NCBI GenBank assembly: GCA_947085765.1 | Contig: CAMTXZ010000075.1 | Location: 7,810 to 71,809 of the forward strand | DNA: 64,000 nt | Source of the DNA: an uncultured Chromatiaceae bacterium | GTDB taxonomy: Bacteria; Pseudomonadota; Gammaproteobacteria; Tenderiales; Tenderiaceae | Direction: 5' to 3' | Part shown: positions 35,957 through 52,938 of the stretch, one piece after another | Layout of the letters: each line of letters opens with the position of its first letter | Numbering within the stretch: position 1 is the first letter of the stretch | Notes under the pieces: generated by a model | Database searches by the model: none | What the model was told of the DNA's origin: nothing | Seen by the model: the letters and a program-made list of their open reading frames with translations, nothing else | Position numbers and translations under genes: made by a program

Positions 35957-36955
35957 ATGTTTGATGGCAAATCAATATTGATTACCGGCGGCACAGGCTC
36001 CTTTGGGCAGCGTTATGTCAAAACCCTGTTGGAGCGTTACAAACCTTCAAGGCTCATCATCTACTCACGTGATGAGCTGAAGCAGTACGAGATGCAGCAG
36101 CAGTACAACGGTCCGATGATGCGTTATTTCATCGGTGATGTGCGCGATGGCGACCGGCTGAAGCAGGCAACACGTAATGTAGATTTCATCATCCATGCGG
36201 CGGCCATGAAACATGTGCCAGCGGCAGAATACAATCCGATGGAGTGTATCAAGACCAACATCCATGGTGCTCAGAACGTTATTGAGGCAGCGCTGGAGAA
36301 CAATGTCGAGAAGGTGATTGCGCTCTCCACCGACAAGGCGGCCAATCCCGTTAACCTCTATGGCGCCACCAAGCTGGCCTCGGACAAACTCTTCATCGCG
36401 GCCAATAATATTGTTGGTTCGCGACAGACCCGTTTTGCTGTGGTCCGTTATGGCAATGTGGTGGGATCACGTGGTTCTGTGGTGCCGTTCTTCAAAAAAT
36501 TGTTGGCAGAGGGGGCGGCGGCACTGCCGATCACCGATGAACGGATGACCCGTTTCTGGATCACCCTGCAGCAGGGGGTCGATTTTGTCTTGAAGGATTT
36601 CCATCGTATGCAGGGCGGCGAGCTCTATGTGCCCAAGATCCCCTCCATCAGAATCATGGATCTGGCGGAGTCGGTGGCACCCGGCATGCCGGTTGAGTTT
36701 GTTGGTATCCGCCCGGGTGAAAAGCTGCATGAGATTATGTGTCCCGCCGATGATTCACACCTGACGCTCGACTTTGGTGATCATTACGTCATTGGCCCGA
36801 CGATTCAGATGTTCAGAAATGTAAATTTTGAAACCAACCGCCTCGGTGAAAAGGGCAAGACGGTTGAGCAGGGGTTCTTCTACAGTTCCGGTAATAACAG
36901 TGACTTTCTGTCGGTGCCACAACTGGTGGAGCTCAACCGGGAGTTGGGATTGTGA
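35957..36955 (+). CDS. pseB: UDP-N-acetylglucosamine 4,6-dehydratase (inverting), PseB/FlmA family
   Basis: 332 aa. Rossmann motif TGGTGSFG and the catalytic region around [14 protein letters not shown]. First gene of the flagellin glycosylation operon. Confidence 0.85.
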
Positions 36956-38091
36956 TCCCCTACGGTCGCCAGTGCATCACTGCTGATGATCTCGAGGCGG
37001 TTGCCGAGACACTGCAATCGGATTGGTTGACCACCGGCCCCAAGGTAGATGAGTTTGAACGTGCCGTTGCCGATTATGTTGGAACGGGCCATGGGCTGGC
37101 GGTCTGCAATGGCACGGCGGCACTGCACTGTGCGGCTGTCGCGGCGGGCATCGGTCCCGGCGATGAGGTGATTGTGCCGGCCATCACCTTTGTGGCAACG
37201 GCCAATGCCGCTGTGTTTCAAAACGGAGTCCCGGTCTTTGCCGATGTTGATCGCGATACACTTTTGATTGATCCCGATTCGGTTGAAGCAAAAATCACGG
37301 CAAAGACCAAGGCGATCTTCGCCGTCGATTATGCCGGACAGCCGTGTGACTACGCGGCGCTGCGCACTATCGCTGATCGACACAAACTTGTCCTAGTGGC
37401 CGATGCCAGCCACTCCATCGGCGCCGCCTCTGAGCTGGGCAAAGTCGGGCAGCTGGCCGATCTAACCACCTTTAGTTTTCATCCCGTCAAACCCATCACC
37501 ACTGGTGAAGGGGGCATGGTGGTGACCAATGACGAGACAATGTGGCGCACCATGCGCCGTTTCCGTAACCACGGCATCGACAACGATAGCCGCCAGCGTG
37601 AAGCATCAGGACAGTGGTTTTATGAGATGGTGGCGCTTGGTTACAACTACCGCATTCCCGATATTCTCTGCGCCCTGGGCATCTCACAACTTAAAAAATT
37701 GGCTGGCTGGATTAAACGACGGCAGGCGATTGCCGCCCAGTATGACAATGCCTTTGCCAGCGTTGCTGGCATCACGCCACTGCTCACCCGGCCGGGCGTC
37801 TCACACGGTTACCATCTGTATGTCATCAGGGTCGATGAGCAGCGCTTTGGCATATCCCGCGATGAGCTGTTCCGACTATTACGAGAAAAGGGAATCGGTG
37901 TGAACGTACATTACCTGCCACTCAACCTGCACCGTTTTTATCGTGAGAATTTTTCCGCCCATGCCGGGCAGTGTCCGGTGGCGGAGCAGGTTTTTACTGA
38001 ACTGTTATCACTGCCGATCTATCCCGGCATGAGTGAAACTCAAGTGGTGGAGGTGATCGCTGCGGTCAAGGGTGAGGCAATTGCATCATGA
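36952..38091 (+). CDS. pseC: UDP-4-amino-4,6-dideoxy-N-acetyl-beta-L-altrosamine transaminase, PseC/DegT family
   Basis: 379 aa DegT/DnrJ/EryC1-type PLP aminotransferase with a 4-nt overlap with pseB. Confidence 0.85.
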
Positions 38092-50316: not shown

Positions 50317-52848
50317 CTATTCCAATTTTAGTGCTTGAGTAAGTTTCTCGACACCGGGGTGGTTTGGGTCTGTATCTATAATGTGGATGAGCGCACTTTC
50401 CGCAGCCTCGCGTGCACCAACATCGGATAGCAGTATGCCGAGTTCAAACATGGTGTCGAGATCGCCTGGAAATTCTTGTAAATAACCGGTATAGGCCACT
50501 ATTGCTTCGTTTATATATCCTGCCAGCGTCAGGAAGCGGGCATAGAAACTTTGGTAGCTCACTCTGCTTTCTGCGAGCAGTTTTAATGCAGGTAGAATTG
50601 TCTGGTAATCCTCATTAGCCAATGAGAAGTTGATAATACGCTCAAGTGCCATCTGTTTTAGATCACTGTTGATCGCTGTATCAATAGAGTAGTAAAGCGT
50701 TTCGGCCATTTTGTAGTTATGCTCCAACTCCGATGTGAGTCCATCTACAAATAACTTTGTCTGTATTGCCAGGGGTTCTATGCGTTTCGATAGCCCTGTG
50801 GTGATGCGCCTTAGTCCGACAGCATCACCTTTGGCATGGTAGGTGATGGCACTTTCGACAATCGATCCAAAGGTGTTGGTAGCTGATATAAGATCCTGAA
50901 AGCTCTGTTCAAAATTTTTGCTATCCGTACTGAGCATGGTATGGAATTGAGAGTGCATCAATTTAATACGTTCTTTTACCTGGGGCGATCTTTTTTTGTA
51001 GGTTTCAGGGTGGCGTTGTTTCCACATGTCAGCGCGGCCATAGACTATATCCTGCCGCCATTGACTGAACAGGGTCTCAAAATCGGGTGATGGGCGCTCC
51101 TCTTCAATGCGGCTGAGGAGGCGATTTTTGGCATCATGGACAACCTCTAACAGAACGGTGGCGCCATGGAGAAATTCTTCATAATAAATTTTTGTTTTGT
51201 TGAAAAGTTCATCGGCTGACCAGTCATCACCAGAATCGGCAGTAATGATCTTAGCAAAACCGACAGAGTTATAGTGCTTCACTGTTTTACTCATCATTTT
51301 AAAACGGATTTCAAGTCTCCTTTCTATTTTTTCCATCTGTTTTTTATATTTTGAGTATTCTGAGGTGTTGACCATCTCCGCCATCTTTGCATTGCAGTTA
51401 AGGGCAATAGCGCTAAGTTTTTTAATCCATCTTAAGTCATTGACGGCCTTGTCGAGTAGTTCGATCATGGTGTTGTAATAATTGCATCTATCTTCACGGC
51501 TATCTTTGTCGAGAAGTGATGAGAGGGTCTGCCAGGCAGATTGGGTAAGTGGCTCATCAATGATAAGTGCATCGGGATGAATGTATTCCACCCCTTCAAT
51601 TTTTGCGGCAGTAATGGCTAGATTGATAATTTTGCAATTATTCTTACTGGCCGCCACGGCCTGCCTTGATATAACCTTGATTGCTTCGTAATAGCCCTTG
51701 TTGGTTTCAGCCTCTACGTCAGCATTGGTAGTCACGGTGTAATCGATCCTCCCCAGCATCGGTCCGGCGGCATACTCAACGGTGCCCTGGGCGTGGGTAT
51801 GGCCAGCAGCGCTGTAGCATAGATCGACACCGGTGAGGACTATTTGCGAGCAGCCAAACTCTTGAGCAATTAGAATGGCGTTGTTAGTGACGGTAGGTGA
51901 TATGGTTTCAATGTTATCAAAATCATCATCGTTCCATGGCAGACGCGGACCGAGGAACAGATTTCGATGTGGCCATTGGCCGAGTAACAGCGGTGTGGTG
52001 TGGCAGCCATTGATGAAGATGGTTTTGTTGCCTAGGTTGAGCATCTCTTTGCTGACGGAGAAACTGACAAATTGTGGATCAATGGAAACGACTATATCGG
52101 GTTCTATTTCGGCCTGGAGCAGCCGTGCAGAGATCCTTGATACCGCAATCAAGATGGCTTCGTTTCGATGTCTTTTAATCCAGGGGATCAGTTCATCAAG
52201 TGATGGACCTGCACCCAGGATGATCGCGCATTTACCTTTTAAGCTGCCACGTAGATCAGCGGCAGGGATGCGGTTTTCTGCCAAATTTGCCAGCTGGCTA
52301 TTAAAGAATATGTGGCTGTCAAACTGTGCTGTGAAGAGCCAAAATATATGGCGTAGCTCTCTGTTAACCGACTGGGTTAGTGCCGGGTAGGCTGGGTGAG
52401 CCGCCTGTTGCGCTGCACATGATCTGACATAACTGATCTTGCCGGAGTAAGTGTAGTTGAGTAGGGCTAGTTCATGTGCGCGCTCGACCCAGTGAGTTGC
52501 ACAGCTGATGGCAACCCTGGTGGCCAGTTCGGTAGAAATAAATTTACTGTCGATGTGGGGGGCGATCTCATCCGGCTCTATAAATAGATAGCGACTACCA
52601 CGTGGCAGACCACGGTCGATAATAAACTGCGGTAACAGGCCGGAATCGCTGCCTACCACAACGTAGAGGGTGTTCTCCTGAAACAGGGCATCGCCAAAAC
52701 GTTTTTGGAATTCAGCGGTAGCACTGGCGGATTCAAAAATGGTGCCCACAAATTCCGTGATGTAACAATCACCAAAACAGTTTTCTGTGGTCGGCAAGGG
52801 AATTATCTCTGCTGTATTGATGTTTGATCCTGGAGACTGTGTGGTCAT
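50317..52848 (-). CDS. Second Maf/DUF115-family protein fused to C-terminal TPR repeats (about 843 aa; start could instead be 52899)
   Basis: DUF115 core CAIILGAGPSLDE...ILIAVSRISARLL...IEPDIVVSIDPQ...VLTGVDLCYS. Tetratricopeptide-like helical repeats at the C-terminus. Markedly AT-richer than its neighbours. Confidence 0.6.
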   Translation of the reverse strand: MTTQSPGSNINTAEIIPLPTTENCFGDCYITEFVGTIFESASATAEFQKRFGDALFQENTLYVVVGSDSGLLPQFIIDRGLPRGSRYLFIEPDEIAPHIDSKFISTELATRVAISCATHWVERAHELALLNYTYSGKISYVRSCAAQQAAHPAYPALTQSVNRELRHIFWLFTAQFDSHIFFNSQLANLAENRIPAADLRGSLKGKCAIILGAGPSLDELIPWIKRHRNEAILIAVSRISARLLQAEIEPDIVVSIDPQFVSFSVSKEMLNLGNKTIFINGCHTTPLLLGQWPHRNLFLGPRLPWNDDDFDNIETISPTVTNNAILIAQEFGCSQIVLTGVDLCYSAAGHTHAQGTVEYAAGPMLGRIDYTVTTNADVEAETNKGYYEAIKVISRQAVAASKNNCKIINLAITAAKIEGVEYIHPDALIIDEPLTQSAWQTLSSLLDKDSREDRCNYYNTMIELLDKAVNDLRWIKKLSAIALNCNAKMAEMVNTSEYSKYKKQMEKIERRLEIRFKMMSKTVKHYNSVGFAKIITADSGDDWSADELFNKTKIYYEEFLHGATVLLEVVHDAKNRLLSRIEEERPSPDFETLFSQWRQDIVYGRADMWKQRHPETYKKRSPQVKERIKLMHSQFHTMLSTDSKNFEQSFQDLISATNTFGSIVESAITYHAKGDAVGLRRITTGLSKRIEPLAIQTKLFVDGLTSELEHNYKMAETLYYSIDTAINSDLKQMALERIINFSLANEDYQTILPALKLLAESRVSYQSFYARFLTLAGYINEAIVAYTGYLQEFPGDLDTMFELGILLSDVGAREAAESALIHIIDTDPNHPGVEKLTQALKLE

Positions 52849-52938
52849 TGACTGGCGGTCCTTTCGCAGTTTGCTTCGATGATGCAGGTTTGGTGCCATC
52901 GAGTTATGACTGAGTACCTCTGAAAAGCCGCATTTGAC

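Follow-up and report, generated by a model that had tools for sequence, protein, structure and literature searches.

The window analysed here is a 64,000-nucleotide stretch of contig CAMTXZ010000075.1 (assembly GCA_947085765.1, positions 7,810 to 71,809 of the forward strand) from an uncultured Chromatiaceae bacterium which is placed in the Tenderiaceae by GTDB. Between flgL and the flagellin gene it carries a gene island which, judged by its sequence, is quite probably a flagellin O-glycosylation system of the 'sfm' type described in Shewanella, here located on the chromosome of a relative of Candidatus Tenderia, the latter being known as a cathode-oxidising autotroph. The list of open reading frames (ORFs) of the window contains 12 ORFs on the plus strand (35957-50279) and a single convergent ORF on the minus strand (50317-52899), and scans with Pfam and NCBIfam hidden Markov models (HMMs) place flgJ, flgK and flgL upstream of the island and the flagellin gene, flaG, fliD and fliS downstream. 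The original prediction had described this layout and had read it as a flagellin glycosylation island with a pseudaminic acid (Pse)-type core and added tailoring genes; the ORF list and the domain scans agree with the layout, every one of its domain calls was reproduced by the HMM scans, and the general reading was right, with PseB and PseC scoring above their cut-offs. By analogy with Shewanella, the glycan would be a sialic-acid-like, heavily modified sugar on the protein of the flagellar filament.

The system to which we assign the island has been described in Shewanella oneidensis MR-1 by Bubendorfer et al. (2013), where the operon sfmABCDE encodes a 290-amino-acid (aa) NeuB-domain protein (SfmA), a 581-aa thiamine pyrophosphate (TPP) enzyme (SfmB), a 255-aa protein resembling 3-oxoacyl-ACP reductases (SfmC), a 395-aa S-adenosylmethionine (SAM) methyltransferase (SfmD) and a 412-aa ATP-grasp protein (SfmE) (PMC3765264). 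Deletion of sfmA, sfmB, sfmC or sfmD results in flagellin of unmodified mass and deletion of sfmE in a slightly smaller mass shift, and loss of the TPP, short-chain dehydrogenase/reductase (SDR), methyltransferase or ATP-grasp gene alters both flagellin mass and motility (PMC3765264). The MR-1 glycan, found on five serines, consists of a 274-Da unit (C11H18N2O6, read as mono-N-acetyl Pse) to which a second unit of 236, 250 or 264 Da (C9H16O7 bearing none, one or two methyls) is added, while MR-1 has PseB and PseC and no clear PseH, PseG, PseI or PseF (PMC3765264). A subsequent preprint by Unay, Kint and Viollier (2023) treats SO_3261 as the Pse synthase, deletion of which abolishes glycosylation, and describes SO_3269 as an unusually large cytidylyltransferase (bioRxiv 10.1101/2023.12.03.569772).

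All five sfm domain types are present in the island, and the proteins of the window were used for tblastn comparison of 86 loci (indicated by L numbers), of which 52 had full 10-kb flanks and were used for the counts of neighbouring genes given below. In S. aquimarina (L080) the gene order is Maf-2, small ORF, short NeuB, TPP enzyme, SDR, methyltransferase, ATP-grasp, GH57-like protein and cytidylyltransferase/PseG fusion, followed by PseC and PseB on the opposite strand and by Maf-1 with its TPR, and the locus holds every gene of the island except the Gfo/Idh/MocA oxidoreductase. In S. marisflavi (L064) the order agrees up to and including the cytidylyltransferase/PseG gene, with PseC and PseB approximately 6 kb beyond, at the end of the DNA examined. 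Identities of the window proteins to those of L080 are 74% for PseB, 64% for the short NeuB, 48% for the TPP enzyme, 47% for the ATP-grasp protein, 40% for both PseC and the GH57-like protein, 37% for both the SDR and the cytidylyltransferase/PseG fusion, 33% for Maf-2, 30% for Maf-1 and 22% for the methyltransferase. The ORF sizes of L080 agree almost exactly with the published MR-1 sizes (Maf-2, 444 vs 441 aa; SfmA, 294 vs 290; SfmB, 584 vs 581; SfmD, 394 vs 395; SfmE, 412 vs 412; Maf-1, 827 vs 822), the small ORF has 77 aa vs 89 in MR-1, and L080 can therefore be regarded as an MR-1-type locus. The Shewanella loci are themselves variable: in Shewanella oncorhynchi (L086, 3867-9766) there is no match to the TPP enzyme, the ATP-grasp and SDR genes have the opposite orientation and are separated from the GH57-like gene by three other ORFs (591, 401 and 303 aa), hence the module has been remodelled between Shewanella species.

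The original prediction had rated the island as the best candidate for an undescribed system in this DNA, and this is where it has to be corrected, since the gene set of the island, apart from Gfo/Idh/MocA, recurs in L064 and L080, with the sizes in L080 matching sfmABCDE, maf-1, maf-2 and glfM of MR-1. The island is not a new class of system, because for the described homologue the genetics, the glycan composition and the transferase mechanism have been reported. Whether this makes it a well-characterised locus with a known glycan structure, a question which the original prediction had itself posed, can be answered with a half yes: the composition is known for MR-1 and the structure is not. 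No solved chemical structure of the MR-1 glycan was found in the literature, where a later cryo-EM paper reports merely extra densities at the known sites, and a literature search for flagellin glycosylation islands with an acetolactate synthase and an ATP-grasp protein found nothing relevant under those terms. Nor did any paper found settle, for the family as a whole, the structure of the 236-Da group or which reactions the TPP, SDR, methyltransferase, ATP-grasp and GH57-like proteins catalyse.

The MR-1 locus (SO_3259-SO_3273) and the island share the short NeuB, TPP enzyme, SDR, methyltransferase, ATP-grasp protein, oversized cytidylyltransferase, PseB, PseC, both types of Maf and a small four-helix protein; neither has PseH in the cluster, the 273-aa flagellin of the window falls into the length class of the MR-1 protein and retains its D1 peptide with the serine, and the GH57-like gene is present in L064 and L080 as well. 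They differ in that identities to the MR-1-type loci are only 22-74%, that the window has the extra Gfo/Idh/MocA oxidoreductase, and that pseB and pseC lead the operon in the window, with the SDR, Gfo/Idh/MocA and methyltransferase genes preceding the TPP gene. Furthermore, the window island is flanked immediately by flgL and the flagellin gene rather than being placed at some other point of the flagellar cluster, the window holds a single flagellin gene, and the host is a Ca. Tenderia-like gammaproteobacterium. The comparison of island content across related genomes, which the original prediction had suggested, shows that the Gfo/Idh/MocA gene is the only one without a Shewanella counterpart; among the 86 loci it was found only in the Tenderia-group loci L001, L002, L007, L008 and L010, plus L055 (41% identity). 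The seven genes beyond canonical Pse biosynthesis which had been listed are thus present, although five of these (SDR, methyltransferase, TPP, ATP-grasp and GH57-like) are part of a conserved module rather than a lineage-specific addition.

With regard to the individual biosynthetic proteins, PseB and PseC match at equivalog level. The NeuB-family synthase of the original prediction is correct for the family; its type is re-read here as the short SfmA, as the SAF domain is missing and the scores fall short of the cut-offs of the PseI model TIGR03586 (166 bits vs a cut-off of 340) and of the NeuB model (172 vs 400). Its closest solved relative (6ncs) is likewise a 290-aa NeuB without SAF domain, and identity across distant taxa is 60-68%. 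The SDR is 37-40% identical to the gene in the Shewanella loci and 57-59% identical to those in L016 and L022, and the TPP enzyme (492 bits with TIGR00118, under the 538-bit cut-off for acetolactate synthase) is 47-48% identical to those of L064 and L080 and 61-64% identical to those of L016 and L022. The methyltransferase has an N-terminal zinc ribbon of the CxxC...CxxC type (C30PLC33 and C66QQC69) and is 65% identical to that of L022. The ATP-grasp ORF is open from 43674, giving a 74-nt overlap with the TPP gene; however, translation probably starts at the in-frame ATG at 43737 (11-nt overlap), because the resulting 413-aa product matches the size of its homologue SfmE (412 aa). In the cytidylyltransferase/PseG fusion, which is 33-37% identical to those of L064 and L080, the PseG-like half reaches 54.2 bits with TIGR03590 (cut-off 153.55), yet positions 2-275 of the 280 in the model are aligned (residues 259-522), while the cytidylyltransferase half matches only KdsB-type models, all under their cut-offs, and has KdsB-type proteins as its best PDB matches. 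No acetyltransferase (PseH/GNAT) domain was found by Pfam and NCBIfam among the 13 island proteins, nor was one found in the S. aquimarina L080 locus, consistent with a mono-acetylated sugar.

Compared with the canonical pathway to cytidine monophosphate (CMP)-Pse (PseB-C-H-G-I-F with Maf, PseD or PseE as transferase, as in Campylobacter, Helicobacter and Aeromonas caviae), the island has PseB and PseC, a PseG-like domain, a NeuB-family synthase, a cytidylyltransferase and Maf-type transferases adjoining the flagellin gene. It differs from that pathway in having no PseH, a synthase without SAF domain and a divergent fusion of PseF and PseG, and in having six added enzymes (TPP, SDR, Gfo/Idh/MocA, methyltransferase, ATP-grasp and GH57-like). 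A further comparison, made by description only, concerns the YerE/YerF-type pairs of TPP carboligase and reductase, which add a two-carbon branch to keto-sugars in the yersiniose A pathway. As in these pairs, an acetolactate-synthase-like TPP enzyme and a keto-reductase are found together in one sugar-modification operon; unlike the C2 branch of the YerE/YerF products, the MR-1 substituent is C9.

From these assignments a biosynthetic route can be proposed. Its outline is supported by homology and by the published MR-1 genetics: a CMP-activated Pse-type sugar arises from UDP-GlcNAc through PseB and PseC, is elaborated by the sfm-type enzymes and is passed on to Ser/Thr of flagellin by the TPR-bearing Maf-1 and by the pair of Maf-2 and GlfM. 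PseB and PseC, with their equivalog-level matches, would convert UDP-GlcNAc into a uridine diphosphate (UDP)-4-amino-4,6-dideoxy sugar, and the new amine would stay unacetylated, no PseH being encoded in the island. As the least certain step, the ATP-grasp ligase would acylate this amine with a polyhydroxy acid which the TPP carboligase, SDR, Gfo/Idh/MocA oxidoreductase and zinc-ribbon methyltransferase may build or trim, methylation of the acid being the part of the last; that the PseC-derived amine is the probable target follows from the lack of PseH both here and in L080 together with the mono-acetylated MR-1 sugar. The PseG-like domain would then remove UDP, the short NeuB-family enzyme would condense the hexose with phosphoenolpyruvate (PEP) to a nonulosonic acid, and the fused cytidylyltransferase would form the CMP-sugar, with the GH57-like protein, almost always encoded next to the PseG-like gene, carrying out at a guess some glycosidase- or transglycosylase-type step in the same pathway. 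Maf-1 and Maf-2 would transfer the sugar to Ser/Thr residues of flagellin before export, Maf-1 binding flagellin via its own C-terminal TPR and Maf-2 depending on the four-helix GlfM-like protein of 87 aa whose gene follows directly. If the MR-1 glycan is a guide, the product should be a mono-N-acetyl Pse-like residue (274 Da) with a large, variably methylated, oxygen-rich substituent, which the Gfo/Idh/MocA oxidoreductase may alter, making the glycan differ from that of MR-1. The unusual acylated or methylated nonulosonic acid foreseen by the original prediction fits what is known of the homologous MR-1 system.

The transferase genes support the same assignment. In MR-1, Maf-1 (SO_3273, 822 aa, C-terminal TPR) alone suffices to glycosylate flagellin, while Maf-2 (SO_3259, 441 aa, no TPR) requires GlfM (SO_3260), a protein of 89 aa which is encoded in cis, folds as a four-helix bundle and has F24, R25, D77 and E80 as conserved residues, with a D77A exchange abolishing its function (bioRxiv 10.1101/2023.12.03.569772). 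The 860-aa Maf of the island is 28-30% identical over 93% of its length to an 819-827-aa gene product of Shewanella and matches TPR_19 over residues 794-855 with E 1.2e-4, a score under the 25-bit Pfam cut-off, whereas the 427-aa Maf has no TPR and, aligned from end to end, shares 33-35% identity with the Shewanella gene in the Maf-2 position. A small ORF directly downstream of a TPR-less Maf is found in the same arrangement in 17 loci, and the 87-aa ORF of the window aligns with the small ORFs following Maf-2 in nine Shewanella and other loci. In this alignment R18, G20, A71, D72 and L74 do not vary, conservation of E75 reaches at least 90%, and the motifs FRLG and ADxLEY of the window protein are shared with the Shewanella ORFs in this position; F17-R18 and D72-x-x-E75 of the window protein correspond to the published F24-R25 and D77-x-x-E80 of MR-1 GlfM. 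The single-sequence AlphaFold2 (AF2) model has helices at residues 5-18, 22-42, 49-64 and 67-76 (predicted local distance difference test score (pLDDT) 75.8, predicted template modelling score 0.67), and a Foldseek search with this model had FliS chaperones as its top matches, which were not significant (E 1.4). The small ORF, listed as just an additional gene in the original prediction, is indeed present and is re-read here, from its alignment and position, as a putative GlfM-like adaptor of the TPR-less Maf. In the flagellin, residues 136-195 contain 17 Ser/Thr, and R93-L112 aligns to the MR-1 peptide R94-L113, in which the serine targeted by Maf-2 corresponds to S105 of the window protein.

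The GH57-like protein is the hallmark of the module. Its PF03065 match spans residues 23-186 only, and the AF2 model (pLDDT 76) has the GH57 4-alpha-glucanotransferase of Thermococcus litoralis (1k1x) as its top Foldseek match (E 5.7e-19), with GH38 mannosidases next in rank. All of 17 homologues compared retain E122 and D221, which correspond in the alignment to E123 and D214 of 1k1w, the nucleophile Glu and the acid-base Asp of the T. litoralis enzyme. Because of the GH57 fold match and the invariant E122 and D221, the protein looks like a putatively active glycosidase- or transglycosylase-type enzyme; a role as CE4-type N-deacetylase was considered and rejected, as the GH57 Glu and Asp do not vary and the fold resembles that of GH57 and GH38 enzymes. 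It shares with the T. litoralis hydrolases (1k1w/1k1x) the two domains, the length of approximately 650 aa, the best fold match and the positions of the catalytic Glu and Asp, but identity is just 11-13% and the context is nonulosonic acid biosynthesis and not alpha-glucan metabolism, which argues for a substrate other than alpha-glucans. Homologues number more than 2300, nearly all unnamed and with approximately 40-50% identity, and a profile search using one genome per species found a relative encoded in 179 species genomes. An exact look-up of the protein sequence gave no record in public assemblies, PHROGs had no match for either this protein or the 87-aa ORF, and no literature was found tying the GH57 family to pseudaminic acid or flagellin.

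Among the 52 loci with full flanks, the GH57-like gene is accompanied by an ATP-grasp gene in 51, by a short NeuB gene in 42 (49-68% identity, and at least 54% in all but one), by a TPP enzyme gene in 15 and by flagellin or Maf genes in 27. A PseG-like segment, either fused to a cytidylyltransferase or as a separate gene, is located within 400 bp of the GH57-like gene in 47/68 evaluable loci. This cross-species comparison suggests a constant core of GH57-like, PseG-like, ATP-grasp and short NeuB proteins, and a variable set of TPP enzyme, SDR, methyltransferases and Gfo/Idh/MocA oxidoreductase. Tentatively, and with somewhat less than even confidence, we propose that the four core proteins form a widespread, biochemically uncharacterised route to N-acylated mono-N-acetyl Pse-type sugars, in which the ATP-grasp ligase replaces PseH and the GH57-like protein adds a new glycosidase- or transglycosylase-type step, with the Gfo/Idh/MocA oxidoreductase of Tenderia giving a glycan unlike that of Shewanella. 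If so, the pathway would serve the flagellins of Tenderia, Shewanella, Marinobacter and methanotrophs, and would also operate from non-flagellar loci in Chlorobiaceae, Acidimicrobiia, Verrucomicrobia and Bacteroidota. GH57-like genes without flagellar genes nearby were seen in Chlorobiaceae (L005 and L019, next to lipopolysaccharide (LPS)-type GT9/GT2 genes), Acidimicrobiia, Verrucomicrobia and a metagenome-assembled genome (MAG) labelled Aenigmatarchaeota, and further GH57-like loci listed are L014 and L073. In L004 (1268-11980) a GH57-like gene with 53% identity is located directly upstream of a flagellin gene, together with two DegT aminotransferases, WbqC, a cytidylyltransferase-methyltransferase fusion, an ATP-grasp protein and a methyltransferase, and with no short NeuB or Maf within 10 kb; from its gene content, this locus appears to be a different sugar pathway which shares the pair of GH57-like and ATP-grasp genes.

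Several points weigh against the assignment of the island to the sfm-type system. Orthology with MR-1 was deduced via other Shewanella species and matching published gene sizes, the gene order differs from that in Shewanella (SDR, Gfo/Idh/MocA and methyltransferase before TPP), and the methyltransferase shares only 22-25% identity with its Shewanella counterpart across 92% of its length. The cut-offs for PseI, PseG and KdsB-type proteins are not reached by the short NeuB, the PseG-like domain and the cytidylyltransferase, respectively, and other parts of the genome could contain a gene for PseH or for a second NeuB. As for the proposed chemistry, an acid built by the TPP enzyme, SDR and methyltransferase and attached by the ATP-grasp protein does not fit well with the loss of all modification in the sfmB, sfmC and sfmD mutants, whereas the sfmE mutant keeps some; the role given to the GH57-like protein is a guess, and the glycan of this organism is a prediction from its genes. 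It is also conceivable, albeit unlikely, that the short NeuB does not make the core sugar and instead builds a C9 side chain, by condensing PEP with a 6-deoxyhexose to a 3,9-dideoxy-nonulosonic acid which the SDR would reduce to a C9H18O8 acid and the ATP-grasp protein would ligate to the amine, with a canonical PseI encoded elsewhere making the core. By our own arithmetic the 236-Da C9H16O7 group of MR-1 equals an acyclic dideoxy-nononic acid minus water, and the absence of a SAF domain and a score far under the PseI cut-off would be in line with such an enzyme; the formula fits equally well to a deoxy-nonose or methyl-octose residue, with the linkage going either way. However, there is no other clear PseI orthologue in MR-1 (PMC3765264), SO_3261 has been used as the Pse synthase (bioRxiv 10.1101/2023.12.03.569772), and the TPP enzyme would be left without a role. 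Moreover, the short NeuB is 60-68% identical across loci which have no TPP enzyme and varying SDR and methyltransferase genes, and such constancy despite varying tailoring genes implies one constant substrate, for which the core sugar is better suited.

The tailoring genes might also have nothing to do with flagellin, with the Pse genes and Mafs placing ordinary pseudaminic acid on the filament and the TPP, SDR, Gfo/Idh/MocA, methyltransferase, ATP-grasp and GH57-like proteins serving LPS or capsule. In line with this, the GH57-like, ATP-grasp, short NeuB, TPP and SDR genes are found as a module away from flagellar genes too, as beside GT9/GT2 in the two Chlorobiaceae loci, and only 27/52 of the full-flank loci have flagellin or Maf within 10 kb. 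In the island, however, the extra genes are translationally coupled between pseC and maf-2 and there is no PseH to make Pse5Ac7Ac, while deletion of the TPP, SDR, methyltransferase and ATP-grasp genes in MR-1 changes flagellin mass and motility (PMC3765264), and we consider this division of labour improbable. Even less probable is that the island makes a derivative of legionaminic acid or of another non-Pse nonulosonic acid; although the scores do not allow the cytidylyltransferase to be called PseF or the synthase PseI, PseB and PseC are above their equivalog cut-offs, whereas the LegB model (68 bits vs 475) and the LegC model (237 bits vs 420) are both far below theirs, and Pfam and NCBIfam found neither a LegX/PtmE-type guanylyltransferase nor a NeuC/LegG-type epimerase in the island. 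The sfm-type flagellin system is therefore the reading which we prefer.

The coordinates of the island genes, of the genes at its boundaries and of the candidate promoters are given in Table 1. Junctions between the island ORFs are either 4-bp overlaps (36952/36955, 38088/38091, 39713/39716 and 46746/46749) or gaps of up to approximately 30 bp. Sites resembling sigma-54 promoters (TGGCAY-N5-TTGM) are present on the plus strand just 5' of flagellar operons at 25275 (flgB region), 28284 (flgF), 35877 (pseB) and 58940 (fleS), each differing at one position from the consensus used (TGGCAC-N5-TTGCW); their location at operon starts fits with a FleQ/FleR hierarchy, although window-wide such sites are not clearly enriched (8 vs 4.4 +/- 2.0 expected by chance). 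The sigma-28 (FliA)-type promoter upstream of the flagellin gene deviates from the consensus at no more than one position, which is true of no other site in the window, and the window-wide scan found no sigma-28 site 5' of pseB. Promoter-like sites for sigma-70 in the window number 19 vs 19.3 expected from shuffled sequence, and the 24 terminator-like sites (17.8 +/- 3.4 expected) are all within ORFs, with none at an operon end.

Table 1. Genes of the flagellin glycosylation island, its boundary genes and candidate promoters (window coordinates)
Feature	Coordinates	Strand	Evidence
flgL, hook-filament junction protein; upstream island boundary	34756..35658	+	TIGR02550 304.8 bits vs 127-bit cut-off; Flagellin_N + Flagellin_C
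Sigma-54-like site TGGCAC-N5-TTGAA; candidate operon promoter (weak)	35877..35892	+	65 bp 5' of pseB; one mismatch to consensus
PseB, UDP-GlcNAc 4,6-dehydratase (inverting)	35957..36955	+	TIGR03589 545.8 bits vs 407.75 cut-off; 74% identity to S. aquimarina L080 gene
PseC, pyridoxal phosphate (PLP) aminotransferase forming UDP-4-amino-4,6-dideoxy sugar	36952..38091	+	TIGR03588 444.5 bits vs 423.5 cut-off
Short NeuB-family synthase, 288 aa; SfmA / 'PseI' (SO_3261) type	38088..38954	+	PF03102 199.6 bits
FabG-like SDR keto-reductase, SfmC type	38970..39716	+	adh_short_C2 198.6 bits
Gfo/Idh/MocA NAD(P) oxidoreductase	39713..40783	+	PF01408, PF22725, PF02894
SAM methyltransferase, SfmD type	40791..42026	+	Methyltransf_23 74.4 bits, residues 115-254
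TPP-dependent acetolactate-synthase-like carboligase, SfmB type	42053..43747	+	TPP_enzyme_N, M and C domains
ATP-grasp carboxylate-amine ligase (L-amino-acid-ligase type), SfmE type	43737..44978	+	ATP-grasp_3 + LAL_C2; 47-49% identity to Shewanella
Cytidylyltransferase (N-terminal) fused to PseG-like domain (C-terminal), 588 aa; counterpart of oversized SO_3269	44983..46749	+	CTP_transf_3 79 bits, residues 8-133
GH57-like two-domain protein, 654 aa; module hallmark	46746..48710	+	PF03065 50.6 bits vs 21.2 cut-off
Maf-2-type flagellin glycosyltransferase, 427 aa, no TPR	48717..50000	+	MptE-like PF01973 114.6 bits vs 34.6 cut-off
GlfM-like putative adaptor for Maf-2, 87 aa	50016..50279	+	directly 3' of TPR-less Maf; no family match
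Maf-1-type flagellin glycosyltransferase, 860 aa, C-terminal TPR; convergent with operon	50317..52899	-	MptE-like PF01973 142.4 bits vs 34.6 cut-off
Sigma-28 (FliA)-type promoter TAAAG-N15-GCCGATAG, near-consensus	52939..52966	+	~110 bp 5' of flagellin start
Flagellin, 273 aa; presumed acceptor; downstream island boundary	53079..53900	+	Flagellin_N + Flagellin_C

The guanine plus cytosine (GC) content of the island is 0.54-0.55, compared to 0.55-0.58 in the housekeeping part of the window and 0.44-0.50 in the flagellar structural genes. Recent horizontal insertion of the island was considered and rejected, because its GC content is close to that of the housekeeping region. Over 50001-57000, containing maf-1, flagellin, flaG, fliD and fliS, the GC content is 0.43-0.49 vs 0.54-0.55 in the biosynthetic part of the island, and the transferase and filament genes hence differ in base composition from the sugar genes. 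A megablast search of the whole island against plasmids had a pseB fragment in a Marinovum plasmid as its only match. The rest of the window is ordinary chromosome, with genes for a helicase, BPD_transp_1 permeases, an RND efflux pump, DsbC and a sulfite/nitrite reductase, and with the flagellar cluster starting at approximately 20.6 kb. Two of the BPD_transp_1 permeases, adjacent and unusually long (554 and 751 aa, 6404-10323, minus strand), look like a long-form ABC-transporter pair and are unrelated to the island.

The closest relatives of the GH57-like protein, in the profile search with one genome per species, are from the MAGs 'Gammaproteobacteria bacterium ND3_Bin_17' (95% identity) and 'Candidatus Tenderia sp.' (93%, 88% and 73%). 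The contigs of ND3_Bin_17 and Tenderia, together with the metagenome contigs L001-L003, contain the same island beside flagellin, flaG, fliD, fliS, fliT, PilZ and fleQ genes, and the island is conserved in the Tenderia-group MAGs L001, L002, L007, L008 and L010. In the relative with 73% identity (L001, 5915-7003), and also in L010 and L002, an extra gene with C2185-like_N and Methyltransf_21 domains is located between the TPP and ATP-grasp genes, which is absent from the window; the tailoring content therefore varies even within the Tenderia group.

Taken as a homologue of the Shewanella locus, the island would bring a distant lineage of the Gammaproteobacteria into the range of a flagellin-modification system which is defined by genetics but whose chemistry is unsolved, and would indicate that the set of Maf-1, Maf-2 and GlfM travels with the biosynthetic genes. 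The split between constant and variable genes narrows down the enzymes relevant to solving the 236-Da substituent, and the comparison also flags the GH57-like family, with its more than 2300 unnamed members, as a probable enzyme family of nonulosonic acid metabolism.

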